IMG/VR virus record: IMGVR_UViG_2693429728_000015 | Location: 1 to 21,849 of that record | DNA length: 21,849 nt | Strand: one strand, 5' to 3' | Source: a virus | Taxonomy: Duplodnaviria > Heunggongvirae > Uroviricota > Caudoviricetes | Shown: positions 1 through 18,571 of the stretch, piece by piece | Position numbering within the stretch: the first letter of the stretch is position 1 | How the letters are laid out: each line of letters opens with the position of its first letter | Position numbers and translations under genes: made by a program | Notes under the pieces: generated by a model | Seen by the model: only the letters and a program-made list of their open reading frames with translations | The model's database searches: none | What the model was told of the DNA's origin: nothing

Positions 1-207
1 ACAGTTGGTGTGGCGGCCTCAGTCCGGAACAATTTGAAAACAAGAACCTCGCTTAGGCCTGTGTCCATATTACGTGGGTAGGATCACGCAGGGGTCGGCC
101 CATTTGAGCTTCAGATAGGAACGTTTGAATTCCTTTCACAAAATACATCACATACTGAACGTGAACATTCCCACTTTGATCTTAAGGCCAAAAAGTATGC
201 AGGACTA

Positions 208-1926
208 ATGATTTTTAGGGATAGCTTGAGAGTATTACCTTATGGTCGAGTAGATAATGATTTCTTCCAGATAGAAGAAAGACGTTCATGGAATGCAGGG
301 CGATATTATTGGTCTAATAGAAGGATTTTTGGTTATATTGGAATTACTCAATCCAGTAATAAAGAGCTGAAAGATAAGTCGGGGAGAGAGGGATTCATAA
401 GAAACCAGGCTGCAAGAGAACTGAAAACTATTATATCTAATTTGTTAACTGAACTTGCTGATAGATTTTTTGGTTCACGTTCTGATGACCGTAAAGAGCT
501 TTTAGAACAAGTTAAGCGTGAAAAAGAGTTAAGAAAATCTGCTCAACAACAAGCTCGAAAATCAACACAAAAAAGTTTTTCAGAAGCTTTGAAGAATCAG
601 ACACCAGTTCTTGATGCTTCCTTGGAGGCTGTTAAAAGGCTGAAAACTAAGCTTGATAAAACTGATGGTTCGTTAGATTTAAACTATCTTAAAATTATAG
701 ACAGTGATCTTACAAACTTAGATGCGTTGCGCAGTGAAATTAAAACGCCTATCAAACCTCCAAAACTTGGAATGTATGAAGAGAAATATAGAGACTACAG
801 AGATAAATTTAATGAGTTCTCTGCGTATATTCTACAAATGAAGTTAGCAATTAATAAACTTGATTCTGAATTAAATAAACTTGAGCCTTCATTGTCAGCG
901 AAAAATCACCTTGAAAAAAATCAAGGTATTATTAATTCTAAACTAACTAAGTTTAATAACACGATAGAGGAGAAGATACATTCTCTTTTAAAAAAATGGG
1001 CCGATGAAATAAAGGTTGATCGAAGTGATTATTATGCTAAAACTATATCAGTTGTTGATTCAATAGATAATGATTCACAAATTGAAAATGTGTTTAATTT
1101 GCTCGATAGTTTATATGTTGAGTCAGTTGATACCCTAACTTTCAAATATCAATCAATAATAAAAGGTCTCGATGGATTATTTGAAGGTATAAACTTAGAT
1201 TCAGCATTCTCATTATCTGAAGAAGAACGCTCATATTTTGAAGAAAAAGCTAAAAGTTTAAACGCGCTTGCACAGTTAGGTATTAGTGTTGAGATAATAT
1301 CTCATGAACTTGAAGAAATGGATTCTATGGTAACCAGAGGACTAAACTCTCTTCCTACTTCTGTAAAAGAACACCCTGGTTTTTCATTGGCGTTAAATGC
1401 TCACAGATCGCTTACTCAACAAATACGTTTCTTATCACCTTTGAAAATATCAGGTTATCAATCCAGGCAGAGAATAACTGGAAAAAATATCATGGATTAT
1501 GTCCTGAAGTTCTTTGGGGAGCGTTTCGAACGGCAACGAATAACTATTGAATTTAGTGAAGAGTTTAAGCAAATCGCAATAACAGATATACCATCAAGGA
1601 TCTATCCTGTTTTTACTAATATTATCAACAATGCAATGTATTGGGTCAGTCTGTCAAATAATAGGCTCATAAAGATTGGTTTTGTGAATTCTTTGGTTAT
1701 CATAGCAAATTCTGGTCCGGCAATTGATACCGATGATATCCCGCGACTATTTGAACTATTTTATAGCAAAAGAGCAAATGGACATGGGGTAGGTCTGTAT
1801 CTATGTCGAGAAAACCTTGCTGTTGCACATCATAAAATATGGTATTCAGAACCTGATGAAGGCGATAACTATTTAATAAAAGATGGCGCTAATTTTGTGA
1901 TCCAGTTCAATGGAGTGGAGTTCTAA
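208..1926 (+). CDS. Histidine-kinase-like protein: coiled-coil-rich N-terminal region, HisKA-like H-box, C-terminal GHKL/HATPase_c domain
   Basis: 572-aa ORF. Translation shows an H-box-like 'ISHELEEMDS', an N-box 'NIINNAMYW', a G1-like 'ANSGPAIDTDD' and a G2 'GHGVGLYLCRENL'. No in-frame start between the stop at 79-81 and ATG 208. Region is AT-rich (about 30% GC in a sampled stretch). No hydrophobic segment seen, so probably cytoplasmic. The SD (AGGA) sits only 3 nt from the ATG, so the start is uncertain. Confidence 0.7.
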   Translation: MIFRDSLRVLPYGRVDNDFFQIEERRSWNAGRYYWSNRRIFGYIGITQSSNKELKDKSGREGFIRNQAARELKTIISNLLTELADRFFGSRSDDRKELLEQVKREKELRKSAQQQARKSTQKSFSEALKNQTPVLDASLEAVKRLKTKLDKTDGSLDLNYLKIIDSDLTNLDALRSEIKTPIKPPKLGMYEEKYRDYRDKFNEFSAYILQMKLAINKLDSELNKLEPSLSAKNHLEKNQGIINSKLTKFNNTIEEKIHSLLKKWADEIKVDRSDYYAKTISVVDSIDNDSQIENVFNLLDSLYVESVDTLTFKYQSIIKGLDGLFEGINLDSAFSLSEEERSYFEEKAKSLNALAQLGISVEIISHELEEMDSMVTRGLNSLPTSVKEHPGFSLALNAHRSLTQQIRFLSPLKISGYQSRQRITGKNIMDYVLKFFGERFERQRITIEFSEEFKQIAITDIPSRIYPVFTNIINNAMYWVSLSNNRLIKIGFVNSLVIIANSGPAIDTDDIPRLFELFYSKRANGHGVGLYLCRENLAVAHHKIWYSEPDEGDNYLIKDGANFVIQFNGVEF

Positions 1927-1927
1927 T

Positions 1928-3676
1928 ATGACAGTGGCAAATTATAATTCTCTTGTCCAGAAAACTTTCTGCGAAAATGCAATTCGTTCCGTTGTCATGA
2001 TTGATGACGATTTTCTGACGTATTCTGAATCAATCAGGGCGTTGAATAACGAAGTTGATTTAGACTACAACAAAATTGACTCATCTAAACGAGCCGCTAC
2101 TCTTGAGAGCTTTTTTCAATCTAAAAATATGATTTGTGATGTTGACAATGGTTCTGTTAATTTCGATGTGGATCGGATTAGAAAATCAGATCTTATTATT
2201 GTAGATTATCATCTTGATAATAATGCACCTGATAAAACACTTAAACTATTACAAGATTTGAAAGGCTCCGATCATTTAAATATGATTGTAATATATACTA
2301 GAGAGAATTTAGAAACGGTTTGGATGCAGATATCATCGACTCTCAAAGGTGCTCTGGATATCAACAGCTTGATCATTGACTACGATAATGAAGATGTCCA
2401 AAGTTATTGGGAAGACGTTGTATTACCGAACTTAAATGATAATGGTAATAAAGCTCTCACAAGAGATGAAACAATAGCCTATATTAAAGACAGTAAGCCT
2501 TGTAGAAGAATTAAAAGATTAATACATGATGATGCTGTGTTGGAGGATCAAAAGGATAAAAACTTCATTGCAAAAATGATTGCAGAATATGCTGTGTCTA
2601 GAAATGCAATTATTTCTAGCAACACATCTGGCAATGTCATTCGGGGTGATGAAAGCGGAGTAAAATGGATTCAATGTGGTAATATCTTTGTCTCCCTATT
2701 TCATAAGGTTCAAGATGATCATGAAAACGATGGAGATAGGATTTGGCAAACTCTCAATGATTCTCTCATTGAATGGAAACCATCTTATTATCAGTTAATA
2801 AAATCTGAAATTCAGAATGCAATCGAAGCTGAGGCTTTATCTTTTGTAAATCATTTGGCTAACGATCATTACGGTCAAGCTGCGTGGTTAAATGAGATAT
2901 TAAAATCAGACTCGCCTGATATTAGATGTAGAAATATTGACTTTGTATTTGGTAATTTATCAGAAGAGCTTTATCAAAGACTTAAAAATAATAATACGCT
3001 GGATGAATTTATCAAAAGTGTTTTTGATAGCTATTCAAATGAATACGCTAACAGCGGAGTTGCTGCATTGCTCCAATATTGCTCTTCAAAAATGGATCTG
3101 CCATCAAATAATGATACTTATCACGAAATGTATCATGCTTTAAATATGAATTTGTCTTCAAAGAATTTTGAAGATGGTCATATTTCTACTGGCACTATTT
3201 TCTTTGATACAGAGTCGAACAAATGGTATTTATGTGTATCTGCGGCATGTGATTTGGTTCCTACTCAGGGTAACGACCCTCACCATGTAAGATTAAGTCC
3301 GCACAGGCTCATTAAAGTTCTGGAGCTTTTTAACGCCAGTCAGAGTAAAGCATTGCCATTTGCTGAACATTCGAAATATATATATGTAATGCATAAAAAT
3401 CAAAGAAAATATCTCTCTATTTTCGAAGGGGATAAAACGCTTCCTGTTGTTGATTATATGGTGGTGTTGAATCATGGAACAACAGTTGATGGCGAAGAAA
3501 AAAATATTATTTCTGCCGTGTTTTTAAGTAATATGGATGGCAACGTGCAAAATGTTCCTGTCCGACTCAAACTTAAATCTCAACTGAGAACTGGTTATGC
3601 AGAAAGATATCAGGCTATAGCGTCTCAGTATAGCTCAAGGATTGGTGTGGATTATGTATCAATGATGCTACCATAA
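1928..3676 (+). CDS. Receiver (REC)-like N-terminal domain fused to a roughly 430-aa C-terminal domain of unknown function
   Basis: ORF track gives 1910-3676. The ATG at 1928 is preferred because GGAGTGGAG lies 7 nt upstream and it sits 1 nt after the upstream stop (translational coupling). N-terminus has REC-like landmarks: 'VVMIDDDF' (acidic pocket), 'DLIIVDYHL' (putative phospho-acceptor Asp), 'MIVIYT' (Thr) and a following Lys. I do not recognise the C-terminal region. Confidence 0.6.
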   Translation: MTVANYNSLVQKTFCENAIRSVVMIDDDFLTYSESIRALNNEVDLDYNKIDSSKRAATLESFFQSKNMICDVDNGSVNFDVDRIRKSDLIIVDYHLDNNAPDKTLKLLQDLKGSDHLNMIVIYTRENLETVWMQISSTLKGALDINSLIIDYDNEDVQSYWEDVVLPNLNDNGNKALTRDETIAYIKDSKPCRRIKRLIHDDAVLEDQKDKNFIAKMIAEYAVSRNAIISSNTSGNVIRGDESGVKWIQCGNIFVSLFHKVQDDHENDGDRIWQTLNDSLIEWKPSYYQLIKSEIQNAIEAEALSFVNHLANDHYGQAAWLNEILKSDSPDIRCRNIDFVFGNLSEELYQRLKNNNTLDEFIKSVFDSYSNEYANSGVAALLQYCSSKMDLPSNNDTYHEMYHALNMNLSSKNFEDGHISTGTIFFDTESNKWYLCVSAACDLVPTQGNDPHHVRLSPHRLIKVLELFNASQSKALPFAEHSKYIYVMHKNQRKYLSIFEGDKTLPVVDYMVVLNHGTTVDGEEKNIISAVFLSNMDGNVQNVPVRLKLKSQLRTGYAERYQAIASQYSSRIGVDYVSMMLP

Positions 3677-3974
3677 TTATTATATTTTAGGCGTGGTGAT
3701 TTTTTTTCGCCATGCCTATTTTATATTTATCATCACAATGATGTTGTTTATTTTTGTTTAAGTCTTCTAAGCTTCATGCATTCTAATGAGAATAATAATA
3801 GAGTTGTGCTGTATATAAAGCCAGAGTTAGTTAATAACTTTAAATTTAATGCTTCAGGATTTTCACTGAGAAAGTGAAAGGCATAAACTAAGTATACAGC
3901 TAAAGTAGCCGTTCCAATTGTTGGTCCAATATCGCCTTGATCATGAGGTTCAAGGTTTACATTGAACTTGAAGA

Positions 3975-4163
3975 TTAGCCATTCAAATCCCCAAGTAAAA
4001 AAACAACTAATATCATGGCTGCGAATAATTTCGCGATGTTATCTGCTGATGGATTCATCAGAACAGATTGTTTCTGAAAAAATTCACAAAGTGAGAGTCC
4101 GAAAAAAATAAAAAAAAGTGGTCTGGAACTAAATTTTTCAAAAACTTTGAATAGGGTTTCCAT
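3975..4163 (-). CDS. Small hydrophobic protein (two predicted TM helices), hypothetical
   Basis: 62-aa ORF with two hydrophobic stretches ('LFFIFFGLSLCEFF', 'LFAAMILVVFLLG') and GAAGG about 9 nt upstream of the ATG. Lies in the AT-rich spacer between the convergent cargo gene and the integrase. Short, so could be spurious. Confidence 0.3.
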   Translation of the reverse strand: METLFKVFEKFSSRPLFFIFFGLSLCEFFQKQSVLMNPSADNIAKLFAAMILVVFLLGDLNG

Positions 4164-4201
4164 TTTCTTTACCTTCAGGATTATATTAGCTATTCTGATA
4201 C

Positions 4202-5473
4202 TTAGGCTACCAGAGCATTTGATCTTTGAGCTTGAACGTAATCACTCCACCATTGCATCAAACTCTGTCGCTCTATCAGATATTCTGCACGATTGTATGC
4301 TGCGATAATTTCATCTTTTTTCGAGTGGGCAAGCGCTGCCTCAAGAACTTCAGCTCTGAATTTACCAGACTCCTCTGCCGCTGTTCGTGCAATAGAACGC
4401 ATACCGTGAGCTACAAGCTCGCCTCCGAACCCCATTCGGATGATAGCTGCGTTGGCTGTTTGTTCATGCATATGATTAAGAGGCGCTTTTATGCTGGGGA
4501 AAACCCATTCTCTATGCCCACTTATTGATTTCATTAATTCAAGGATGCGCAAAGCTTCTTTACTCAAAGGAACTTTGTGAAGCTTTTTCATTTTCATGAA
4601 ATCAGCAGGAATGTTCCAAATGCTGTTGGTTGTATCAATATCAGACCACCTTGCGCGAACGGCTTCACCCGGACGAACCCATGTCAACAATTGCCATTCA
4701 ATTAGCATACGTGTTTCCAACCGGATTGACGCATTCGTCAAAGATTCCATAAACCTTGGCAATTCGCTTGGGGGAAGGGCAGGCATATTTTGCTTTTTTG
4801 GTTTACTGAATCTTTGACCAAGGTTGTCAGCCGGGTTGAACTCAATAAGTTCTTCAGTAGCTGCCCACCGGAAGATTTCATTCAGACGTGAAATGATACG
4901 GCGTAGAGTTTCCAATACGCCTCGTTGCTCAATAGGATCAAGGTGTTGTTTTAAGAGCTTAGGTCGGATCTCATTGATAGGGACATTACCCAGACCGGGA
5001 AAGACATTTCTCTCTAAGCTGCGCCAGATGTCTGCTGCATGGTCTTGTGAGATACCTGATGTCTTTACCTTCTCATCTAACCATTTCCGCGCTACGGCTT
5101 GGAGAGTGTGCTCAGTAGCACTCTTTAATGCCTTCGCCTTATCGTTGTTATGGATTTGGGGATCAACACCATTTGCCAGAAAGGAGAGATATTCATCACG
5201 TAAGGCTCTGGCTCTTGCAAGGGTAAGGTGAGGATATGTCCCAAGGCTCATTTTGGTTCTTTTCTTGCTCACTGGTACTGCATACCTGAAATACCAATTT
5301 TTCTTGCCTCCTTTCGCCAAAGGAGCGATTCGTAGAATCAGACCATCACCGTCAAACAAGTTGATTTCTTTATCGGCTGGCTTGGTGCTTTTGATTTCAG
5401 TGTCAGTGAGCTTCTTAGCGATTTTTGCCATTTTGGGACCCTCGGTTTTTGGACCCTTCTTAATGGGTCCCAT
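4202..5473 (-). CDS. int: P4-family (IntA/CP4-57-like) tyrosine integrase
   Basis: 423-aa ORF. N-terminus 'MAKIAKKLTDTEIKSTKPADKEINLFDGDGLILRIAPL' is typical of the P4-integrase arm-binding domain; C-terminus has 'LAHSKKDEIIAAYNRAEY' (catalytic-Tyr region). The more likely start is the ATG at 5431 (GAGGG about 9 nt upstream), giving 409 aa. It lies immediately downstream, same strand, of the ssrA 3' fragment. Confidence 0.9.
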   Translation of the reverse strand: MGPIKKGPKTEGPKMAKIAKKLTDTEIKSTKPADKEINLFDGDGLILRIAPLAKGGKKNWYFRYAVPVSKKRTKMSLGTYPHLTLARARALRDEYLSFLANGVDPQIHNNDKAKALKSATEHTLQAVARKWLDEKVKTSGISQDHAADIWRSLERNVFPGLGNVPINEIRPKLLKQHLDPIEQRGVLETLRRIISRLNEIFRWAATEELIEFNPADNLGQRFSKPKKQNMPALPPSELPRFMESLTNASIRLETRMLIEWQLLTWVRPGEAVRARWSDIDTTNSIWNIPADFMKMKKLHKVPLSKEALRILELMKSISGHREWVFPSIKAPLNHMHEQTANAAIIRMGFGGELVAHGMRSIARTAAEESGKFRAEVLEAALAHSKKDEIIAAYNRAEYLIERQSLMQWWSDYVQAQRSNALVA

Positions 5474-5528
5474 TCAGGGTGCCATAACTCGTAGTTCTCA
5501 GCAATTCTCACTGGACGACAATAGACGT

Positions 5529-5560
5529 AAAAAAGCCCGCAGAGCTTGTGCTGTGTGGGC
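5529..5560 (-). terminator. Putative rho-independent terminator between the ssrA fragment and int
   Basis: On the minus strand an imperfect GC-rich hairpin (GCCCACACAG...CTGCGGGC) is followed by TTTTTT (plus-strand A-tract at 5529-5534). Confidence 0.45.
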
Positions 5561-5596
5561 TTAGTAGACTTCATTGAACTTCAAACAACTAAAAAG

Positions 5597-5641
5597 TGGT
5601 GGAGCTGGCGGGAGTTGAACCCGCGTCCGAAATTCCTACAT
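5597..5641 (-). repeat. ssrA: 3'-terminal 45 nt of tmRNA (ssrA): T-arm plus acceptor ending CCA; att-site direct repeat of an ssrA-integrated element
   Basis: Reverse complement reads ATGTAGGAATTTCGGACGCGGGTTCAACTCCCGCCAGCTCCACCA, which I recognise as the 3' end of enterobacterial tmRNA. Sequence at higher coordinates (5642-5800) is AT-rich and unlike the tmRNA body, so this is a partial copy, not the gene. Confidence 0.75.
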
Positions 5642-5767
5642 ACTAATAATATATCTTTAAAATCAAAATATTCTATTATTTATCAATGTATTATGTTTAT
5701 GTGGTGTTAAGGGGTTTATATGGGTTTTAGTTCTCTGCCGCCAAAATGCAGCCAAAAAAATTGAATG

Positions 5768-5795
5768 GTAAAACGCCAGTTCGTTGAACTGGCGA
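5768..5795 (-). terminator. Rho-independent terminator after the ThyX-like gene
   Basis: Perfect 9-bp stem with 3-nt loop (cgccagttc-gtt-gaactggcg, 5775-5795), followed on the minus strand by TTTTACC. It sits 10 nt after the stop of the 5805-6572 CDS. Confidence 0.6.
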
Positions 5796-5804
5796 GATCT
5801 TGTC

Positions 5805-6572
5805 TTATTGTTTTATTATCTTAACGTGCGCCGTTCCTCCATTGACTTTTTCGAAATCTTGGAACAAGGCAGGGGCATCTTGAGTTACAATATCGTAAAG
5901 TTTTTCTGAAACTGTTCTCATTTCATAGTCACCCTGTATTGCTCCTCTCATTTCGAAGAAGTGTCGAATTGCGCGAGCATTTGCTGTGACGATTATTTTT
6001 GTCTCGGTTGCATTAGGCAATATAGAGCGAGAAGCGCTTCTTAGGGCCCGCATTTTTTCTTTTTTGTTCTCATACGATTGGTTTTCACGGATTTTTTTCA
6101 AGGATTGCTTATAAAAATCCAGACTACTTTCAATATGTTGGCACCATGACTTAAACAATTCTGGGTCATTTTTTACTTCTATAGGGGCTACGAATTCAGC
6201 ATCGGATTCATCATGATACTGTTGGGATAACTGGCTATATGAAAAACCAGCTCTATGCCGAACTAGCTGGTGTGTAAATGCACGAGATACCCCAGTAATT
6301 AAAAAGGTCCAGTTCAAATGTTCTAAGACACTTTCATGCCCTTGAATAATTAAATTGTTGATATATTGACTTGTAGTCCGTGGAGACTGCTTATCCTCTC
6401 CAAAAGACATATAACATAGCCTGCCAGCGGCCTCTACCAGAAGCTCAGCTTCGGTCGCCTGCCCTTTGCGAACCCATTGCAATGATGATGTGTTTAAAAA
6501 ATCATCAAAAACATTACTTTCAAATGAAGGGTGTGATATGCATTTTACTGATAAATCAGAGATTTTTATCAT
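5805..6572 (-). CDS. ThyX-like flavin-dependent thymidylate synthase homologue
   Basis: 255-aa ORF with 'GVSRAFTHQLVRHRAGFSYSQLSQQY', matching the ThyX signature (RHR ... SYSQ.SQ) and its surrounding conserved block. GGGAG lies upstream of the ATG. Starts 2 nt after the stop of the upstream Dcd-like gene (operon). AT-rich. Confidence 0.7.
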   Translation of the reverse strand: MIKISDLSVKCISHPSFESNVFDDFLNTSSLQWVRKGQATEAELLVEAAGRLCYMSFGEDKQSPRTTSQYINNLIIQGHESVLEHLNWTFLITGVSRAFTHQLVRHRAGFSYSQLSQQYHDESDAEFVAPIEVKNDPELFKSWCQHIESSLDFYKQSLKKIRENQSYENKKEKMRALRSASRSILPNATETKIIVTANARAIRHFFEMRGAIQGDYEMRTVSEKLYDIVTQDAPALFQDFEKVNGGTAHVKIIKQ

Positions 6573-6574
6573 TT

Positions 6575-7360
6575 TTACTCCCGTATAGCTTTTGGGGTGC
6601 TTACTTTAGCATCAACCTTTGGTTCGTTTGATTTAGCATTTTTTAGTAATTCAACGGTGCTTTTTAGGCTATTTATTTCATTTTGTTGAACTTTTATTGT
6701 TAATTCAAGATCTTTTGTACTACTGACATTACTGGATACTATTTGAAATAAGAAAGGAATTGCTAGGGTTATCAACGTTAGCATTAAGGCTGCTATCGCA
6801 ATTATAAAGCCAGTTTTTTTCGCAATGATTTTATTGATTTCTTTCGGAAGTCGTTTATCAAGTCCTGCAAAATCCTTTCCCATTCTAGAAAGTTGATCAT
6901 CATCCAATTTATTTACGATTTTTCCTTGGTAACCTTTAGTCGGTATTATTGTTTTAAATAATAACATTCGGGCTACTGCAGAATTTTGTGTCAATGAGAA
7001 TGGTTCTTTTGACATATTTACAAGATATATTGAAATTATGCCATTATATCCAGGGTCAATATGCCCTGGATTCGTCATGATAATTCCATTTTTTGATAGT
7101 GTGTTTCTTGGGAATATTACACCAGCTAAATTTTTTGCAAGTTGGAATTTTTCATTTAACTCTAATATTACAGTTTCCCCTGGCATCAGGATATGGTTGT
7201 TACGTGTTTTTTTATTGTCTTGACAGTCTGGTATATGTATTGTTTTTACAGAGAGATCAATGCTTGCAGATTGAACTTTAAATGTTCCATTTAATACCGT
7301 TAATGGATCAAAAATGTTGCCTCGCTGAATTTCATCATTGATTTCTATTTCAGACAGCAT
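6575..7360 (-). CDS. dCTP-deaminase/dUTPase-fold (Dcd-like) domain fused to a C-terminal transmembrane helix and a Lys-rich tail
   Basis: 261-aa ORF. 'PGHIDPGYNGIISIYLVNMSKEPFSLTQNSAVARMLLF' resembles the Dcd active-site block (HRIDPGWSG...). N-terminal region is also Dcd-like. Residues about 190-215 ('GFIIAIAALMLTLITLAIPFLFQIV') form a predicted TM helix. Starts 26 nt after the int stop. AT-rich. Confidence 0.6.
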   Translation of the reverse strand: MLSEIEINDEIQRGNIFDPLTVLNGTFKVQSASIDLSVKTIHIPDCQDNKKTRNNHILMPGETVILELNEKFQLAKNLAGVIFPRNTLSKNGIIMTNPGHIDPGYNGIISIYLVNMSKEPFSLTQNSAVARMLLFKTIIPTKGYQGKIVNKLDDDQLSRMGKDFAGLDKRLPKEINKIIAKKTGFIIAIAALMLTLITLAIPFLFQIVSSNVSSTKDLELTIKVQQNEINSLKSTVELLKNAKSNEPKVDAKVSTPKAIRE

Positions 7361-7386: not shown

Positions 7387-8400
7387 TTATAAATTAGCCA
7401 GAGGGTTTTTTATTACTGCATCTTCAAGATGCTCTGGGGAAAAATGTGCATAAATCATAGTCATTTTTATATCAGAGTGGCCTAAAATATCTCGTAAAAC
7501 CAAAATATTACCACCATTCATCATAAAATGGCTGGCGAATGTATGGCGCAGAACGTGGGTGCATTGGCCCTCTGGTAACTCAATGTCAGCTCGCTTTACT
7601 GCTCGTTCAAAGGCTTTTCTGCAAGGAGTGAATAACTTCCCTCTGTTCTTAGGGAGTTCGTCATACAGATCCTGAGATATCGGCACGGTACGGTTTTTCT
7701 TGCCCTTAGTCTTGGTATAGGTGATCCGGTATTTCGATAACTGATGGCCCTGCAGATTTTCGGCTTCACTCCAGCGCGCGCCGGTGGCCAGGCATATTTT
7801 TGCAATTAAAAGTAGACTGGGGCTTTGAGAATCAGCACAGGCATCCAGCAGACGTTTAATTTCTTCCGGGGTCAGGAACGCCAGTTCACCCTCAGCAATT
7901 TTAAATGTTGGCAGCCCGGCAAGCGGATTGGGGGCTGACCAGTGGCCCAACTTTTTCAGTGTGCCAAAAACAGATGATAGGTTGCGCTGTTCAAGGTTTA
8001 CAGTGCGGGGCTTAACGGGCGACATAAGCGTGCCCTCTTCATTTCGCACTTCACCTTTTAGCCGCGCTTCTCGGTATTTAGTAAAATCACCGGCTGTCAG
8101 CTCTGAGGCGATGGGATCGCCTAGACCATTACAGATAATTCTAAGTTTCGCCATGAGGCGCTTGGGGTCTGCGAGTGTTTGACCATACAGGGAATACCAC
8201 TGCTCAATTAATTCTGATAGGTGTCGCCGATCTTCCTTTTCCCCCAGCCATGGCTTTTTGTTCACTTCTTCCATTGTGAAGCTTTCAAAAGCAATGGCTT
8301 CGCCTTTCGTAGCAAATTGCTTACGCACGCGCTTGCCATTGCGTCCATGGGGATAGCACTCGCACAACCATTTACCGTTTGGCTGTTTTCTGACAGTCAT
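7387..8400 (-). CDS. int: P2/186-family tyrosine integrase
   Basis: 337-aa ORF. N-terminus 'PNGKWLCECYPHGRNGKRVRKQFATKGEAIAFE' is P2-Int-like; C-terminus 'HVLRHTFASHFMMNGGNILVLRDILGHSDIKMTMIYAHF' carries the R-H-R-Y catalytic region. Starts 2 nt after the cI stop. Confidence 0.9.
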   Translation of the reverse strand: MTVRKQPNGKWLCECYPHGRNGKRVRKQFATKGEAIAFESFTMEEVNKKPWLGEKEDRRHLSELIEQWYSLYGQTLADPKRLMAKLRIICNGLGDPIASELTAGDFTKYREARLKGEVRNEEGTLMSPVKPRTVNLEQRNLSSVFGTLKKLGHWSAPNPLAGLPTFKIAEGELAFLTPEEIKRLLDACADSQSPSLLLIAKICLATGARWSEAENLQGHQLSKYRITYTKTKGKKNRTVPISQDLYDELPKNRGKLFTPCRKAFERAVKRADIELPEGQCTHVLRHTFASHFMMNGGNILVLRDILGHSDIKMTMIYAHFSPEHLEDAVIKNPLANL

Positions 8401-11069: not shown

Positions 11070-11303
11070 ATGCGTAATATTGAAATCCTCACGACTAAAA
11101 CCGGACCGGATGACGCAGGGCTTAATATTTTACTGACAGAGGCTCGTCTGGAAGAACGTCGGGCAAGGGCTGAAGCAATGGCAGCTCGCCTTGATAGCCT
11201 GGCGTGTCATATCACATCCCGCCAGCTAAACCACGTCGAAGCGGCAGAACTGCTGCGTGTAACTGCTGAAGCAATCCAGAACGAAGCGCAGGAGATCCAC
11301 TAA
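11070..11303 (+). CDS. Hypothetical early protein
   Basis: ORF track starts at TTG 11064. ATG 11070 has CAGGAGAA upstream. The stop overlaps the next gene's ATG (coupled). Confidence 0.55.
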   Translation: MRNIEILTTKTGPDDAGLNILLTEARLEERRARAEAMAARLDSLACHITSRQLNHVEAAELLRVTAEAIQNEAQEIH

Positions 11304-11530
11304 TGGCTGATGCAATGGATCTCGTACAGCAGCGCGTTGAAGAAGAACGCCAGCGCCATATTCGTGCTGTCCGTGCCAAAACACCGGGCGTGTCTCGCGT
11401 GCTTTGTATTGAATGTGAAGCGCCAATTCCGCCAGCACGACGCCGCGCCATTCCGGGAGTGCAGCTTTGCATTACCTGCCAGGAAATCGCAGAGCTGAAA
11501 GGCAAACATTACAACGGAGGTGCTGTATGA
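11303..11530 (+). CDS. TraR/DksA-family C4 zinc-finger protein (P2 orf82-like)
   Basis: 75-aa ORF with two Cys pairs, 'CIECEAPIP' and 'CITCQE', and AGGAGA upstream. Confidence 0.7.
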
Positions 11531-11829
11531 CAAGGGCAGTGCGTATCCATCAATTAAAAATTGCACCTAAGTATTTCAACGCTGTGGTTGCAGGTCAAAA
11601 GACGGCTGAACTTCGTAAAGACGATCGTGGCTATAAAGTTGGTGATGTTCTTTCTCTTTGCGAATGGAAGCATGGCGTATTTACGGGTAGGGAATGGGCC
11701 GCTGTTATCTCTCATGTGCTTCCGGTTAATGACGTCATGGCAGTTTCAGAACAATGGGTGATGCTATCAATTCGCCCATTAACCCCATTAGAAGCTTTAG
11801 GATATGTTATTGCAGGAGGTGCTGTATGA
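11527..11829 (+). CDS. ASCH/DUF3850-like (PUA-fold) protein
   Basis: ORF track starts at 11467 inside the previous gene. ATG 11527 gives a 100-aa protein, '[40 protein letters not shown]...', which resembles ASCH/DUF3850. Immediately upstream of the methyltransferase. Confidence 0.55.
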
Positions 11830-12683
11830 GTACCATCCTGAAATGGGCGGGTAATAAAACTGCCATTATGTCCGAACTGAAAAAACATCTTCCTGCTGGC
11901 CCGCGACTGGTTGAACCTTTCGCGGGTTCCTGTGCTGTGATGATGGAGACGGATTACCCCAGCTATCTGGTTGCGGATATTAATCCTGATTTAATCAACC
12001 TCTATAAAAAGGTTGCTGCTGATTGCGAGGCGTTTATATCTCGTGCCAGAGCTTTATTTGAGGAAGCAAACAGGGAGTTGGCTTATTACAACATAAGGCA
12101 GGAGTTTAATTACTCCACTGAAATTACTGATTTCATGAAAGCGGTATATTTCCTGTATCTCAATCGTCATGGTTACCGTGGGTTATGTCGTTATAACAAG
12201 AGCGGGCATTTCAACATTCCATACGGTAATTATAAAAATCCGTATTTCCCTGAAAAAGAAATTCGCGCATTTGCAGAGAAAGCCCAGCGAGCAACGTTTA
12301 TCTGCGCCAGCTTTGATGAAACGCTGGCGATGCTGCAGGTGGGGGATGTGGTGTATTGCGATCCGCCTTATGACGGTACGTTTTCCGGCTATCACACTGA
12401 TGGTTTCACTGAAGATGACCAGTATCACCTGGCATCCGTTCTTGAACATCGGTCATCAGAAGGACATCCGGTCATTGTTTCTAACAGTGACACATCCCTG
12501 ATCCGTTCGCTGTATCGAAATTTTACTCACCACTACATCAAGGCAAAACGCAGCATCGGTGTAGCAGCTGGTGAGAGTAAATCTGCAACAGAAATCATCG
12601 CTGTTTCCGGGCCGCGCTGCTGGGTGGGATTTGATCCTTCGCGTGGCGTGGATAGTTCTGCCGTGTACGGAGTGCGTGCATGA
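11826..12683 (+). CDS. dam: Dam-family N6-adenine DNA methyltransferase
   Basis: ORF track starts at 11754. ATG 11826 has GGAGGTG upstream. N-terminal '[20 protein letters not shown]...EPFAGSCAV' is the AdoMet-binding region; 'CDPPYDG' is the catalytic DPPY motif. Confidence 0.85.
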
Positions 12684-15094
12684 GCCATGCTGATATGAAC
12701 AACTGCAGCGGCTTTAACGAGGTCGCCGCAGCATTCTCATGGAACAGCCCGAAAAAGGCCATTAACCCTTATCTGGACCCGGCGGAAGTTGCGCCGGTTT
12801 CTGCGCTTTCAAACCTGATCACTCTGTACGCTACTGATAACGAGCAGGAACAACTGCGCCGCGAGGCACTGAGTGATCAGGTTTGGGAGCGTTATTTCTT
12901 TAATGAATCCCGTGATCCTGTCCAGCGCGAAATGGAGCAGGATAAGCTCATTAGCCGGGCAAAGTTGGCGCATGAGCAGCAGCGTTTTAACCCGGACATG
13001 GTCATTCTGGCAGACGTTAACGCCCAGCCTTCCCATATCAGCAGGCCGCTGATGCAACGTATTGAATACTTCAGCAGCCTTGGCAGGCCAAAGGCTTATT
13101 CCCGCTATTTGCGTGAGACGATTAAGCCATGTCTGGAACGGCTGGAGCATGTACGCGACAGTCAGCTATCCACTTCTTTTCGCTTTATGGCAAGCCATGA
13201 AGGGCTGGACGGCCTGCTGATTCTGCCTGAAATGAGTCAGGATCAGGTGAAACGCCTGTCCACCCTTGTTGCTGCGCATATGAGCATGTGCCTTGATGCA
13301 GCTTGTGGCGATTTGTATGCCACCGATGACGTTAAGCCAGAAGAAATCCGCAAGACATGGGAAAAGGTGGCAGCAGAAACCCTGCGACTGGATGTCATAC
13401 CGCCTGCGTTTGAGCAACTCCGCCGGAAAAGAAACCGCCGCAAACCTGTGCCCTATGAACTCATTCCGGGTTCGCTGGCGCGTATGCTGTGCGCCGACTG
13501 GTGGTATCGGAAATTATGGAAGATGCGTTGCGAATGGCGGGAAGAGCAGTTGCGTGCTGTCAGCCTGGTCAGCAAAAAAGCATCTCCCTATGTCAGCTAT
13601 GAAGCCGTGATGCATAAACGTGAGCAGCGCCGTAAGTCGCTGGAGTTTTTCCGTTCTCATGAACTGGTGAACGAAGACGGCGACACGCTGAACATGGAGG
13701 ATGTGGTAAACGCCAGCAGCAGCAACCCGGCGCATCGCCGCAATGAGATGATGGCCTGTGTTAAAGGCCTGGAACTTATCGCGGAAATGCGTGGTGACTG
13801 CGCCGTTTTCTACACCATCACCTGTCCGTCACGTTTCCATTCCACGCTAAATAACGGCAGGCCAAACCCGACCTGGACCAACGCGACAGTAAGACAAAGC
13901 AGCGATTATCTGGTCGGCATGTTTGCTGCATTTCGTAAGGCTATGCACAAAGCCGGGTTGCGCTGGTATGGCGTGCGGGTGGCTGAGCCACATCATGACG
14001 GTACAGTTCACTGGCACCTGTTGTGTTTTATGCGCAAAAAAGACCGCCGCGCCATCACTGCATTACTGCGTAAGTTTGCCATCCGTGAAGACCGCGAGGA
14101 GCTGGGCAATAACACGGGGCCGCGCTTTAAGTCTGAGTTGATTAACCCGCGCAAAGGAACGCCGACAAGCTACATCGCGAAATATATCAGTAAGAACATT
14201 GACGGGCGTGGTCTGGCTGGCGAGATCAGCAAGGAAACGGGTAAATCCCTGCGTGATAACGCTGAATACGTGAATGCCTGGGCGTCTCTGCATCGTGTTC
14301 AGCAATTCCGCTTCTTTGGTATTCCGGGGCGTCAGGCTTATCGTGAACTGCGATTGCTGGCTGGTCAGGCGGCAAGGCAGCAGGGTGACAAAAAAGCAGG
14401 TGCGCCGGTACTGGATAACCCACGCCTTGATGCCATCCTGGCTGCTGCTGATGCTGGCTGTTTTGCGACCTACATCATGAAGCAGGGCGGCGTGCTGGTT
14501 CCCCGCAAATATCACCTTATCAGAACAGCTTATGAAATTAACGAAGAGCCGACCGCCTATGGCGATCACGGTATTCGTATTTATGGCATCTGGTCACCCA
14601 TTGCAGAGGGCAAGATCTGCACTCATGCAGTGAAGTGGAAAATGGTTCGTAAGGCCGTTGACGTTCAGGAGGCGGCAGCCGAACAGGGCGCTTGCGCCCC
14701 TTGGACTCGTGGCAATAACTGTCCCCTTGCTGAAAATTTGAACCAACAAGGGAAAGACAAATCAGCTGATGGGGATACCAGAACGGACATTACCCACATG
14801 GATGACAAGGAGTTGCACGATTACCTGCACAGTATGAACAAAAAAGAGCGCCGGGAACTGGCTGCAAGGTTACGCCTGGTGAAACCGAAACGGCGTAGAG
14901 ACTACAAACAGCGAATTACAGACCATCAACGACAGCAGCTCGTCTATGAACTGAAGTCCAGAGGATTTGATGGCAGCGAGAAAGAGGTCGATTTACTCCT
15001 TCGCGGCGGCAGTATTCCGTCAGGAGCAGGCCTGCGTGTCTTCTATCGGAACCAGCGTTTGCAGGAAGATGATAAGTGGCGGAACCTGTATTAA
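12680..15094 (+). CDS. A: P2/186 gene A-type replication initiation endonuclease
   Basis: 804-aa ORF, GC-rich, in the position after the early genes. Size and conserved blocks (for example '[11 protein letters not shown]') are consistent with the rolling-circle initiator A. Start overlaps the dam stop. Confidence 0.8.
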
Positions 15095-15163
15095 TTACGC
15101 GGGTTAACAATTCGTGCTCTTAATAATACCAGGCATATCAGGCTGATGAACGTAAAAAAACGT

Positions 15164-15206
15164 TTTACATCAGTAAGATTATCATATACTGTAAATATAA
15201 ACAGTG
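15164..15206 (+). promoter_or_regulatory. SOS-regulated promoter: TTTACA-17-TACTGT with a LexA box overlapping the -10
   Basis: LexA box TACTGTAAATATAAACAGTG at 15187-15206 (CTGT-N8-ACAG). -35 TTTACA at 15164-15169. It lies upstream of the small ORF and the DinI-like gene. Confidence 0.6.
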
Positions 15207-15247
15207 GTTATCTATACAGTATTGTTTGCGGTGTCATAGGAGGAAAG

Positions 15248-15436
15248 ATGCAGGACTATTTTTTGGAGTCTTTGAAGCTCCAGCGCATTGATTTTTTTCT
15301 TAAGCTTGTAGCGGCTAGTGAGTGTAGTGATGAAGAGAAGGGGCTGGCCCTGCAGTGGGTTTCTGAATTGACTGATGAACTCATGGCAAAAATCAGAAGC
15401 CACGAATACAACCGCTCAATGGATGTCATCAGCTGA
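15248..15436 (+). CDS. Small acidic protein, possibly the N-terminal antirepressor part of a Tum-like module
   Basis: ORF track starts at 15146. ATG 15248 has the strong SD AGGAGGAAAG upstream and gives 62 aa. Downstream of the LexA box and upstream of the DinI-like gene. Confidence 0.45.
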   Translation: MQDYFLESLKLQRIDFFLKLVAASECSDEEKGLALQWVSELTDELMAKIRSHEYNRSMDVIS

Positions 15437-15446
15437 GGTGACTTTT

Positions 15447-15680
15447 ATGCGCATTGAAATAATGATCGATAAAGAGCAGAAGATTAGCCAGTCTACCCTG
15501 GACGCTCTGGAGTCCGAGCTTTACCGCAACCTGCAACCCATCTATCCCAAGACCGCTATCCGCATCCGTAAAGGGTCGGCAAACGGCGTTGAGCTGAGTG
15601 GCTTAAAGCTTGATGAAGACAAAAAGCGGGTGATGGAAATTATGCAACAGGTTTGGGAAGACGACAGCTGGCTGCACTAA
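15447..15680 (+). CDS. DinI-family protein
   Basis: ATG 15447 with GAGGTG 6 nt upstream. 77-aa 'MRIEIMIDKEQ...ALESELYRNLQ...VMEIMQQVWEDDSWLH' resembles E. coli DinI. The phage 186 Tum antirepressor has a DinI-like C-terminal part. Confidence 0.7.
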   Translation: MRIEIMIDKEQKISQSTLDALESELYRNLQPIYPKTAIRIRKGSANGVELSGLKLDEDKKRVMEIMQQVWEDDSWLH

Positions 15681-15798
15681 GGAACGTTCCTGATGTAAGA
15701 ACTTGAATCTGACGTCAGCAAGGTTGAACAACGAGAGTAGCGAGGCGTTAGCCATGGGTAAAAAAGACAGTAATCACCAGATTATTTATCGGGGCTAG

Positions 15799-16014
15799 GT
15801 GCTGGAACGTTTAACCCTTGGCGACTGGGTCTTCTTTCAACGCCCAAAGGAGTGTGGCGGAGGTTTTTGGTTGGGCCGCATCTATGAAGACTGCTTCTGG
15901 CTTGAGCTGGAATTCCCCGTTTCGCTATATGACGGCCTGGGGTTTTTGATGGAAGTCACTAGGGTAGAGCAGAGAAGTGATGAGGTTGACGCGAATTATC
16001 CCCTGTTTGATTAA
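15799..16014 (+). CDS. Hypothetical protein (GTG start, weak)
   Basis: 71-aa ORF with GTG start and no clear SD. May be a remnant. Confidence 0.25.
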   Translation: MLERLTLGDWVFFQRPKECGGGFWLGRIYEDCFWLELEFPVSLYDGLGFLMEVTRVEQRSDEVDANYPLFD

Positions 16015-16033
16015 AAATGTATTAGCTTATAAT
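16006..16033 (+). promoter_or_regulatory. Near-consensus sigma70 promoter (TTGATT-16-TATAAT) upstream of the membrane-protein gene
   Basis: -35 TTGATT at 16006-16011 and -10 TATAAT at 16028-16033, about 30 nt upstream of ATG 16063. Confidence 0.5.
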
Positions 16034-16062
16034 GGAATACTATTTTTGCAGGTGGGGGCGCA

Positions 16063-16674
16063 ATGGATTTAGTCTTTAAAGTTCTGGCTTCGTTGGGTGG
16101 GGTGTCTTTTGTTGCATCTGGCATATTTGTTTGGATCGGGAAAGTTTATTTAGAAAGATATAAGTCGCGGCTAAACAAAGATATTGCTGAATTTCAATCA
16201 CAACTGAGTGCAACTAATGAAAGAATAAAGGCTAAGTTAGACAATTCTGTTTATGTAACGAAAGCGTATTTTGATAAGGAGTTATCAGCATATAGTCTCA
16301 TTTGGAATTCGATGTTTGAAACCAGAGAAAGCGTGCTTAAGCTGAGGCCTGCGCTGGATCATGTTGACCCCAACGAACCATTTGAAGAGAGAAAATTTAG
16401 AAGGTTGAAAGTTTTTTCTGATGCATTTAACACTTTTGTTACAAGTGTTGAATCTAACAAACCGTTCATCTCACCAGAGGTTTATATAATCTTGGACCGT
16501 TTCCGGAAGGAATGCCTTTCAGAGTCAATATCGTTTAAGCATAGCGATCCAGAATTTGACGGGCAAAATTATTGGAAAGAGGCGGAGTTGAACCATACAA
16601 CCATCATCAAGCTTTTTGATGAGACGTGTGATGCAATTCGAGACAGGATGCACACATTAACTGTGGTTACGTAG
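16063..16674 (+). CDS. Membrane-anchored protein (single N-terminal TM helix), unknown function
   Basis: 203-aa ORF. Residues about 5-26 ('FKVLASLGGVSFVASGIFVWIG') are hydrophobic. GGTGGGGG upstream of the ATG. AT-rich. Confidence 0.65.
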   Translation: MDLVFKVLASLGGVSFVASGIFVWIGKVYLERYKSRLNKDIAEFQSQLSATNERIKAKLDNSVYVTKAYFDKELSAYSLIWNSMFETRESVLKLRPALDHVDPNEPFEERKFRRLKVFSDAFNTFVTSVESNKPFISPEVYIILDRFRKECLSESISFKHSDPEFDGQNYWKEAELNHTTIIKLFDETCDAIRDRMHTLTVVT

Positions 16675-16766
16675 GTTTCCAAAAAGTCTCGATGCCCGCT
16701 TTGGAGATTGTGCATGTCTATGCCGCATGAATCCGCATGATCGTTTGAGGATCGTTTTAGCTGAGG

Positions 16767-16792
16767 CCCGCCAGGAGTGGCGGGATTTTGCT
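16767..16792 (+). terminator. Hairpin plus T-rich tract (possible terminator or attenuator) between the membrane-protein and KAP genes
   Basis: CCCGCCA-ggag-TGGCGGG (16767-16784) followed by ATTTTGCTT, inside a GC-rich spacer that contrasts with the AT-rich flanking genes. Confidence 0.35.
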
Positions 16793-16918
16793 TATGTCAT
16801 GCAGGCGCATGAAAACCGCTACATAAAGCGGGCAGGCGTGGCGGGGATACGAGCGCGCGCTCATTACTTTTATAATTCTAGGGTTATAATACGGGGCTGT
16901 CTTTCTAGGAGAAAACAC

Positions 16919-18571
16919 ATGTCCTTAGAGTTTATCAAAGAACAGTTGTCAGATTTTATCTCATCTACAGAACCAGAAGTAATGGCTATACAGGGTGAAT
17001 GGGGAATTGGTAAAACCTATACTTGGAATACGTTCCTAAAAGATAATAAAGATAAGGTTGCATTTAATAGATATAGTTATGTCTCTCTTTTTGGTATAAA
17101 TTCACTAGATTCTTTAAAGTATTCTATTTTTGAGAATGCAATTACAAAGGAATATATTGGAAATAAACCTGATTTGGAGACAGCAACAACAAACGCAAGT
17201 GGACTTTTTGAATCATTTTCTCGAAAAGCAGCAGGTTTGTTAAAAGAAGTTCCTGTTGTAAAAAACTTCTCTACGACACTTGAAGCAATGTCATTTCTGA
17301 CCGTTTCTAAAATGATTGTAGTAATAGATGACTTAGAAAGGCGTGGCAAAAATTTAGATGTTAAAGATGTTTTAGGGCTAGTATCTCTATTAAAAGAGCA
17401 GAAGGATTGTAAGGTGGTTCTATTGCTTAACAATGGCACAGCTAGTATGGAGGATTATTCTACTTATAAAGAAAAGGTCATTGATAGAGATATCACTTAC
17501 AATCCAACACCAGAAGAATGCGCAGATATAGCCTATAAAGGTGATTCTCATGTTTATAACTTGTTAAGTAAATATTCCATTTCTTTAGGTATCAAGAATA
17601 TTCGAATCTTAAAAAAGATAGAACGTTTTTTCGTGTCCTTAATACCAAATATTATAGGTGATGTTGAGACAATTTCAAATGAAGTTGCGCATTCATTAAC
17701 TCTGTATTGTTGGAGCCATTACGGATTTTCTCCAGAGGGAGATGTGCCATCACTAGAATATATTAGGGGAGTGAGGAATATATATACTTATAATGACAAG
17801 GAAGAAGGCCATGAGAAAATCTGGCTTAATACCTTGCTTAAATATGGATATAGAAAAACGAATGATCTTGATGAGGTTCTTATTGATATGGTTAGATATG
17901 GCTATCTTGATAAGAGCAGTTTCCAAAGACAAATAAGCCTAAGGAATGAGGAGATTACGCGTGATAATAAACGAGGTTCCTTATCTGAGGCATGGCAGTT
18001 CTTTCATAATTCATTTGATGACAATCAAAATCAGGTTGTTGACAAGCTATATCAAGCGGTGGTTGATGGGATGAAGTATGTGACTCCAAGTGATTTAGAT
18101 AATGTTGTCGGACTATATAGGGATTTCGGAGAGAATGCTAAGGCGAGTGAATTGATTGAACAGTTTATTAATTATGGTAACGATGCTCTAAAGGAATATG
18201 TTCAATCTATTTATGTGAATGTTCATCCCGTAAGAGATACTGAGTTGTTGTCAAAAATTCAAGCCTATTCTAAGATTATAAATATTGATGGTTCAATATA
18301 TGATGTTCTTAAGAAATTATCAGGTCAGAATGGTTGGTCTGATAGACATGAGGAAATATTGGATGCTGCTTCAGTAGATGACTACTATCAATTATTTAAA
18401 AATGTCATTCTTGATGGTGGTGATTCAATAATAGCTACGGCGCTTAAATTCGGAAATTTTAGTAATGGTTCTGATAGAATGAATCGTATAGGGAAAAAGG
18501 CAAGGGATGCCTTGATAAGAATTGGAGATGAATCGGCGATTAATAAAATGCGTGTAAGGCGATTTTTGTGA
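16919..18571 (+). CDS. KAP-family P-loop NTPase
   Basis: ORF track starts at 16727. ATG 16919 is preferred because AGGAGAAAA lies upstream and two TATAAT boxes lie at 16871-16890. Walker A 'QGEWGIGKTYTW' (GxWGxGK[ST], KAP-type); Walker B 'MIVVIDDLERRGK'. No TM helix seen within it. AT-rich. Confidence 0.75.
   Translation: MSLEFIKEQLSDFISSTEPEVMAIQGEWGIGKTYTWNTFLKDNKDKVAFNRYSYVSLFGINSLDSLKYSIFENAITKEYIGNKPDLETATTNASGLFESFSRKAAGLLKEVPVVKNFSTTLEAMSFLTVSKMIVVIDDLERRGKNLDVKDVLGLVSLLKEQKDCKVVLLLNNGTASMEDYSTYKEKVIDRDITYNPTPEECADIAYKGDSHVYNLLSKYSISLGIKNIRILKKIERFFVSLIPNIIGDVETISNEVAHSLTLYCWSHYGFSPEGDVPSLEYIRGVRNIYTYNDKEEGHEKIWLNTLLKYGYRKTNDLDEVLIDMVRYGYLDKSSFQRQISLRNEEITRDNKRGSLSEAWQFFHNSFDDNQNQVVDKLYQAVVDGMKYVTPSDLDNVVGLYRDFGENAKASELIEQFINYGNDALKEYVQSIYVNVHPVRDTELLSKIQAYSKIINIDGSIYDVLKKLSGQNGWSDRHEEILDAASVDDYYQLFKNVILDGGDSIIATALKFGNFSNGSDRMNRIGKKARDALIRIGDESAINKMRVRRFL

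Follow-up and report, generated by a model that had tools for sequence, protein, structure and literature searches.

Bellieny-Rabelo, Pretorius and Moleleki (2021, Genome Biol Evol; PMC8011034) described by computer analysis a gene family, the source of the Pfam models PF19191 and PF19192, in which a histidine-kinase-like gene and a receiver-like gene are linked in 91.6% of cases. The genes were first noticed as induced in Pectobacterium during potato tuber infection. C5 methylases and restriction-modification genes were enriched nearby, and the association of methylase genes with the kinase-like and receiver-like genes was thereby published independently of the present work. In that data set, which included E. 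coli members, most kinases carry a HATPase_c_3 domain and the combination of HEF_HK with HATPase_c is listed as a natural "group 2" architecture; the C-terminus of the receiver protein was given no fold or role and no experiments were reported. Here we examine positions 86 to 3676 of a stretch of 21,849 nucleotides, IMG/VR virus record IMGVR_UViG_2693429728_000015, that we call the window. A preliminary description, made from the letters alone, had reported a two-component-like gene pair at 208-3676 and proposed that it could be a distinct variant of phosphorelay-based defence. We found that the pair is real but that the locus and its family, HEF_HK/Response_reg_2, were already known and that the family is present here in degraded form. 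The region is probably the decayed remainder of a three-gene system carried by an ssrA island, the intact form of which would sense unmodified DNA through a phosphorelay, and the copy in the window is likely inert.

The kinase gene in the window is truncated

The part of the window that holds the remnant contains the following features.

1-85, plus strand: right end of an IS3 insertion sequence (IS), with the 3' end of the transposase coding sequence at 1-56 and the IS terminus (...GGATCA) at about 85
86-1926, plus strand: 5'-truncated paraMORC/histidine-kinase-like gene, codons 377-988 of 988, assigned from Pfam matches, junction mapping and motif conservation
about 1273-1449, plus strand: DHp (HEF_HK) domain of the kinase fragment
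about 1591-1866, plus strand: HATPase_c domain of the kinase fragment
1928-3676, plus strand: receiver-effector gene, 582 amino acids, assigned from its Response_reg_2 match
about 1928-2710, plus strand: receiver (REC) domain with a helical insertion
about 2711-3157, plus strand: helical subdomain of the effector region
about 3158-3673, plus strand: β-rich subdomain with a conserved C-terminal RIGVD tail

The first open reading frame (ORF1) spans 208-1926 and encodes 572 amino acids when read from the ATG at 208, which confirmed the coordinates given in the preliminary description. Residues 356-414 match the Pfam model HEF_HK (26.0 bits, cut-off 24.1) and residues 462-553 match HATPase_c (44.9 bits, cut-off 26.4); NCBIfam returned matches to the kinase catalytic (CA) domain, all of them below threshold. 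The protein lacks a transmembrane sensor, as had been described, and is cytoplasmic. The H-box histidine is His366 (window 1303-1305). This residue with its His-Glu pair, the N-box asparagine and the G2 box are invariant in 41 of 41 family kinases. The G1 box (window about 1750-1780) has the form NxGxA in 18 of the 41 family loci, which make up the clade of this allele, and the canonical form DxGxG in the other 23.

Although its coordinates stood, ORF1 is not a complete gene. The frame remains open upstream of the ATG at 208 as far as a stop codon at 79-81, inside the IS, and homology with intact kinases sets in at base 86, immediately after the IS3 end. Window positions 86-5640 align with positions 11127-16681 of an intact copy of the island (L002) at 98.9% identity. 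The kinase gene of L002 has 988 codons, and the ORF1 region corresponds to the last 612 codons of this 988-residue protein, with relatives 99% identical. The missing codons, 1-376, encode in these relatives a paraMORC-type GHKL ATPase, seen in the L002 kinase as a HATPase_c_3 match at residues 28-137. The window copy therefore lacks the N-terminal module of the predominant group 1 architecture, which was lost at the IS3 junction (85/86), and there is no C5 cytosine DNA methyltransferase gene in the window. An IS3-family transposase directly 5' of a truncated kinase gene is also annotated by RefSeq in strain 103605. These alignments show that a deletion with IS3 at its edge removed the methylase gene and kinase codons 1-376, leaving the DHp/CA core and the receiver-effector. 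The sequence from the IS3 end to ORF1 contains no promoter-like site. As it is without a sensor, a methylase or its own promoter, the copy in the window is most likely non-functional, silent or inert, and is improbable as the active defence pair that had been proposed.

The conserved unit has three genes

To describe the intact form we surveyed 46 family loci, taking one genome per species; 41 of these contained the kinase N-terminus and were informative. They span Gamma-, Alpha- and Betaproteobacteria, Planctomycetota, Myxococcota and other phyla. In all 41 the kinase is full length and a C5 methylase gene adjoins either the kinase gene (upstream) or the receiver gene (downstream). Among 120 listed homologues the full-length kinase has about 980-997 amino acids. 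In L002 the C5 DNA methyltransferase (PF00145, 200 bits) is encoded by an overlapping gene 5' of the kinase gene. The intact 988-residue protein is made up of an N-terminal paraMORC-type GHKL ATPase, an S5-like module, a long coiled coil, DHp and an HK-type catalytic domain, and GHKL motifs I-III (ExxxN, DxGxG, GEKGIGRLS) of the HATPase_c_3 module are invariant in 41 of 41 loci. All-against-all clustering of neighbouring open reading frames over the 46 loci returned only three recurrent gene families, methylase, kinase and receiver-effector, and no fourth conserved gene. These comparisons indicate that the conserved unit consists of three genes and not two: a methylase, a full-length kinase and a receiver-effector. 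A third gene upstream of the pair, which the preliminary description had suggested looking for, thus exists in intact relatives; it encodes a C5 DNA methyltransferase rather than a separate phosphotransfer protein and is deleted here.

A natural, short, sensor-less kinase was considered and rejected. Salmonella proteins annotated as 572 amino acids long come from genes, such as that of Salmonella enterica at L053 3993-6983, in which the frame runs unbroken through an intact stretch of 416 codons at the 5' end. Intact kinases of other genera, proteins P0190-P0199 among them, are annotated from the same internal methionine as the truncated E. coli protein. Read against the genes, the 572-amino-acid entries in Salmonella and other genera are apparently mis-called starts, an annotation artefact that may have propagated from the abundant E. 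coli remnant. Such starts may inflate, or partly explain, the published sensor-less "group 2" architecture.

Two further observations concern individual family loci. In E. coli SE15 (L051 15105-15977) and in Salmonella (L053 9775-10650) the intact triad is followed by a gene for a phosphorothioate-DNA-binding HNH endonuclease (DNA-SBD_ScoMcrA plus HNH_2). This gene is not conserved across the family; it either is an independent gene for modification-dependent restriction or serves the triad as an accessory. A 5.6-kb contig labelled as a Bacteroidales metagenome-assembled genome (L005, DAIPZW010000118.1) encodes a receiver-effector 100% identical to that of the window, adjoining a truncated kinase fragment and an integrase; the contig is almost certainly E. 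coli DNA that was binned wrongly.

The remnant in E. coli

The window is of E. coli chromosomal origin. Its bases 1-5754 match 560 of 5426 complete genomes of this species at at least 99% identity and lie between ygaQ/csiD-gab and ssrA. The remnant occurs in about 10% of the genomes, always at the ssrA island site. By contrast, the methylase gene and the 5' part of the kinase gene of this allele were found in none of the 5426. The best E. coli matches to the missing part reach about 70% identity and come from another triad, paralogous and intact, that is present in 212 genomes, such as SE15. Searches of phage collections gave two matching records, both of them the same E. coli chromosomal locus deposited together with prophage sequence, and plasmid collections gave two matches among 72,556, both to distant megaplasmid copies.

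Two junction alleles were found. In 484 genomes IS3 adjoins the truncated kinase gene as in the window (85/86), and in 70 genomes there is no IS but a 15-nt scar (ATCCTTAGAGATGCG; L052 2728-2742). The IS-less form is also present in GenBank AJ304858, where it carries the labels "remnant integrative element" and "histidin kinase-like protein". In both alleles the kinase gene is broken at one and the same nucleotide, suggesting a single ancestral event. Simple insertion of IS3 into the scar allele does not account for the other allele.

We asked whether the two-gene remnant could still be a working, self-contained phosphorelay defence system or toxin, in which the kinase core phosphorylates the receiver either at a low constitutive level or on some other cue, and which E. 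coli would retain for its usefulness. Both reading frames are intact, the phospho-site and CA-domain motifs are all present, and about one complete E. coli genome in ten has kept the pair. Differences from the intact relative number 12 synonymous and 2 non-synonymous in the receiver-effector gene and 4 synonymous and 6 non-synonymous in the kinase fragment, counts that are too small for a firm conclusion on selection from dN/dS (non-synonymous relative to synonymous change). About three of the six non-synonymous kinase changes arose in the E. coli lineage, and one substitution is R-to-G at a position conserved in nine homologues. The frequency of the remnant is also weakened as an argument for function, since the copies are at least 99% identical and share one of two junctions; this suggests a single recent event followed by clonal inheritance and not repeated selection. 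Some genomes (H30 and H48) carry further IS insertions in the pair. Elsewhere, all 41 informative loci retain both the N-terminal GHKL module and the methylase, so that a natural sensor-less form is not confirmed, the Salmonella 572-amino-acid proteins being intact genes with mis-called starts. Together with the missing upstream promoter-like site, these results make a functional two-gene system quite improbable.

Several points nonetheless weigh against our view that the copy is inert and that the intact triad is a DNA sensor. The receiver-effector reading frame is still intact with its excess of synonymous changes, which fits a recent truncation and equally fits continued selection. IS3 is oriented so that it reads into the pair, and read-through from it could express the remnant. 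In the IS-less allele the scar supplies an in-frame ATG for an ORF of 614 amino acids. The Asp of a G1 box normally contacts adenine N6. With NxGxA in place of DxGxG, use of ATP by the CA domain in this clade is not certain, and its nucleotide preference or kinase activity may differ. Finally, the searchable literature yielded no experiment on any member of the family, so every mechanistic step proposed below is an inference. In the boldest form of the alternative, the surviving kinase core and receiver-effector would be a live, domesticated abortive-infection or stress toxin, and the intact triad would define a new immunity class, its MORC-type DNA sensor signalling unmethylated DNA by way of a His-Asp phosphorelay. 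The trigger for such a toxin may be the truncated kinase or cross-talk with a different kinase, and its fold may be new in such a role. We give this combined proposal little chance of being correct and favour a decayed, inert remnant. For the window itself this has little consequence, as it holds an ordinary deletion remnant of a published system.

The receiver-effector

The second open reading frame (ORF2) most likely starts at the ATG at 1928 (582 amino acids) and not at 1910, in agreement with RefSeq and with homologues. This start lies one base after the ORF1 stop codon (1924-1926), with GGAG motifs just upstream, which bears out the tight coupling that had been described for the two genes. 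They are adjacent and co-oriented, as is usual in the family. ORF2 matches Response_reg_2 with an E-value of 3e-31 (109 bits, cut-off 27). The receiver residues D26, D27, D93, T124 and K260 (582-residue numbering) are invariant in 55 of 55 homologues, and the phospho-acceptor Asp93 is encoded at window 2204-2206. Thus the phospho-acceptors on both sides of the putative relay, singled out in the preliminary description as residues to check, are conserved throughout the sequences compared.

The C-terminal ~320 residues of ORF2, in which no output domain had been recognised before, gave no profile match in Pfam, NCBIfam or the Protein Data Bank (PDB). When 24 family C-terminal domains were compared with Pfam at E-values up to 10, no family recurred and there was no match to PemK/MazF or CcdB. 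Neither ORF1, ORF2 nor the effector domain has a recognisable nuclease domain or motif, and no helix-turn-helix or other DNA-binding fold was detected in the effector region. Modelled alone, the C-terminal region gave a predicted local distance difference test score (pLDDT) of 81 with a helical and a β-rich subdomain, the latter taken to be a β-barrel. Foldseek comparison of this model with the PDB gave no significant match; the sole match with a reasonable template modelling score (TM-score) was a MazF, itself non-significant. We regard a CcdB/MazF-like toxic domain as a lead and not as a finding. Across 232 effector sequences the conserved residues are N406, T421, G422, C436, C441, D442, Q552, R554, Y557, R560, R571, G573 and D575. 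A profile of the C-terminal 321 residues retrieved 664 clusters among 1.8 billion proteins. Among the best 150 hits the domain almost always occupies residues about 260-600 of a protein of ~600 amino acids, consistent with its being attached to this receiver or with fragments of such proteins.

An effector without a recognisable nuclease motif, joined to a pair with predicted canonical His-Asp chemistry, could also belong to a two-component system for ordinary gene regulation, unconnected with conflict, the C-terminus binding DNA or a partner to control expression or epigenetic state (for instance 5-methylcytosine). The induction of Pectobacterium members during potato tuber infection (PMC8011034) would suit such a function. 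However, a regulator of this kind is hard to reconcile with a patchy, horizontal distribution on AT-rich mobile islands in many phyla, with the enrichment of restriction-modification genes nearby (PMC8011034) or with the lack of a detectable DNA-binding fold. Housekeeping orthologues outside islands, which would have spoken for it, were not seen, and the minority of E. coli genomes that carry the allele all have it at the ssrA site. We consider ordinary regulation very improbable, and take the effector to be probably the output of a conflict system.

Proposed mechanism of the intact triad

For the intact family, the argument starts from the conservation of the three-gene unit, of both ATPase modules and of the His and Asp residues, and from the fusion of the effector to the receiver. 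By analogy with MORC/MutL-type GHKL clamps, histidine kinases, receiver domains and restriction-modification logic, we infer the following sequence of events. The methylase would mark the cell's own DNA, and the paraMORC module would be a DNA-clamping sensor for unmodified, foreign DNA. ATP-driven dimerisation of the paraMORC module could be relayed by the coiled coil so as to switch on autophosphorylation of the DHp histidine, His782. The phosphoryl group would then pass from His782 to Asp93 of the receiver, and the activated receiver, probably by dimerising, would release the C-terminal effector. This putative CcdB/MazF-like toxic or nucleolytic domain would restrict the invader or abort infection by killing the cell. 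A paraMORC-type GHKL ATPase is needed for the anti-phage activity of VcSduA, a defence protein with a nuclease domain (PMC12137116). The E. coli remnant adds a hint from natural genetics: loss of the methylase was seen only where the sensor had gone too, as a protective role of the methylase would predict.

The island and its surroundings

Downstream of the pair, the window contains the rest of the integrase-proximal part of the island.

3688-3718, plus strand: terminator-like hairpin followed by a T run, with a 12-bp stem that includes 6 G-C pairs
3748-4164, minus strand: small hydrophobic open reading frame (138 amino acids in relatives), frameshifted here
4202-5473, minus strand: P4-family (PRK09692-type) tyrosine integrase of the island, with Arm-DNA-bind_3, Phage_int_M and Phage_integrase domains
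5597-5640, minus strand: 3'-terminal fragment of ssrA (tmRNA), the attachment (att) remnant of the island, assigned from the L002 alignment and a sub-threshold Rfam tmRNA match

The hairpin begins 12 bases 3' of the receiver-effector stop codon and marks the end of the operon. The small hydrophobic gene is kept only in enterobacterial copies of the island. Here it has a 1-bp deletion at 3996/3997 relative to two other copies, leaving an open reading frame of 62 amino acids, a change that may be genuine decay or may stem from a sequencing error. The integrase matches the NCBIfam model PRK09692 at 440 bits (cut-off 434), in line with the P4-family assignment that had been made, and the placement of the pair as island cargo beside it holds. 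The match between the window and L002 ends at base 5640, which is 44 nt into the L002 tmRNA gene (16638-17001); the Rfam tmRNA match covers 5597-5867 and is below threshold. The kinase/receiver pair has a GC content of 34%, compared with 45% for the integrase gene, and sits on the side of the integrase opposite the ssrA att remnant, as was described before. The island in the window ends at IS3, and distal to the att remnant are cargo genes and a P2/186-like prophage in tandem.

The gene order in the intact copy, L002, is methylase, kinase, receiver-effector, small open reading frame, P4-type integrase, tmRNA and smpB. Precomputed Pfam matches together with our own scan placed a relaxase (PF03432), a NikA-like gene and extra tyrosine recombinases or integrases further upstream. 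For the remaining genes the precomputed set, which also lists the methylase, names no family. In our scan of eight L002 genes the NikA-like match was below threshold (18 bits, cut-off 27), and five of the eight had no family match. The relaxase, NikA-like and additional tyrosine recombinase genes of the intact copy identify the carrier as a mobilisable island integrated at ssrA and not as the P4-like satellite that had been suggested, nor as a prophage. None of the P4 genes psu, delta, sid or the alpha primase-helicase was seen in the window or in L002, where the upstream genes were not scanned with PHROGs.

Carriage on a mobilisable island bears on a further explanation, namely that the intact triad is mainly an addiction module (post-segregational killing) that stabilises the mobile element: once the element or its methylase is lost, the sensor would see the cell's own unmethylated DNA and the effector would kill. 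The triad is found on integrative mobilisable or conjugative elements, including L002 and SE15, the latter with ArdC and MobH genes 3' of the triad. The methylase is inherited together with the sensor in every informative locus, its loss is seen only in company with that of the sensor, and the candidate CcdB/MazF fold suggested by the model is typical of addiction modules. Addiction is, however, compatible with defence, as classical restriction-modification systems do both, and the family hardly occurs on plasmids, the replicons on which addiction modules are most frequent. A mainly addictive role therefore seems unlikely to us, and sensing of unmodified DNA for defence remains the explanation that we prefer.

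Two other AT-rich cargo segments were noted. At 5805-7360 (minus strand, 31-36% GC), between the ssrA att remnant and a P2/186-type integrase (7387-8400), are genes for a ThyX thymidylate synthase (PF02511) and a dCTP-deaminase/dUTPase-like protein. Neither matches PADLOC, and their products may act on nucleotide pools. In strain 103605 an unrelated 669-nt hypothetical gene occupies this position, indicating that it is a variable cargo slot. At 16063-18571 (plus strand) a two-gene insert lies just 5' of a P2-like portal gene (18602-19633). Its 614-amino-acid product matches the PADLOC defence candidate PDC-S49 (E-value 4e-27). In strain 103605 the corresponding position holds genes for an AAA ATPase and an HNH endonuclease, as is typical of a P2 defence hotspot.

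Comparison with known systems

The window copy agrees with the HEF_HK/Response_reg_2 family in scoring above the curated cut-offs of both Pfam models, in having the two genes side by side on one strand and in its cytoplasmic kinase. Its relatives, with an N-terminal HATPase_c_3 domain and a neighbouring C5 methylase gene, match the published description (PMC8011034). It differs in that both of these are missing owing to the deletion. For this E. coli allele the "group 2" architecture corresponds to a truncation, and at least some 572-residue annotations elsewhere are mis-called starts. The island shares its integrase family and its chromosomal site, between ssrA and ygaQ/csiD, with other ssrA islands that have P4-family integrases, such as that at the CP4-57 site of E. 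coli K-12. It differs from these in its cargo and in the relaxase, NikA-like gene and further tyrosine recombinases of the intact element. With P4-like satellites it has the integrase family in common but not the satellite genes.

Detocs consists of a kinase (DtcA), a receiver-only buffer protein (DtcB) and a receiver fused to an effector (DtcC). Its logic, with a cytoplasmic histidine kinase that passes a phosphoryl group to an effector-fused receiver in a conflict or mobile setting, is that proposed for the family described here. The pair is nevertheless not Detocs: the present family has no receiver-only protein, its third gene encodes a DNA methyltransferase, its sensor is a paraMORC GHKL ATPase and its effector is unrelated, in keeping with the earlier remark that the pair only recalls Detocs. 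PADLOC v2.0.0 gave no significant match for either protein, although the inclusion of Detocs models in this release was not confirmed. None of the eight proteins scanned, both ORFs included, was significant against any PADLOC model. The weak matches were PD-T4-6 (E-value 0.026) and Cas3 (E-value 0.086) for the kinase fragment and, for residues 54-137 of ORF2, the transmembrane model C3a59 (E-value 0.0048, 15 bits, sub-threshold). Assignment to Detocs or to another catalogued defence system is thus unsupported by the scan. The methylation-associated defence system (MADS) is unrelated, as it has an N6 methylase and its "histidine kinase" is only an island-border gene (preprint).

The candidate effector differs from the CcdB/MazF/Kid superfamily in having no sequence-profile similarity to it, no confident match to the catalytic Arg/Thr of MazF and no significant Foldseek match. 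No antitoxin gene is present either, and the domain is part of a larger protein that also contains a receiver and a helical domain. As for restriction-modification systems, intact relatives have a methylase and the window copy has none, and neither protein has a known nuclease domain. Two further parallels are the MORC/paraMORC restriction-modification systems (Iyer, Abhiman and Aravind 2008), in which a MutL/MORC-like GHKL ATPase is tied to cytosine methylases and an effector, and VcSduA (paraMORC3 plus a DUF4263 nuclease), which has the same kind of GHKL ATPase and needs both ATPase and nuclease for defence (PMC12137116). The family described here differs from both. No PD-(D/E)xK, HNH or Vsr nuclease can be recognised in its effector, and the GHKL module would be coupled to this effector by a His-Asp phosphorelay and not by fusion or through a helicase partner. 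If our proposal is correct, this family would be restriction-modification-like, with sensing and killing joined by a phosphorelay rather than by a protein complex.

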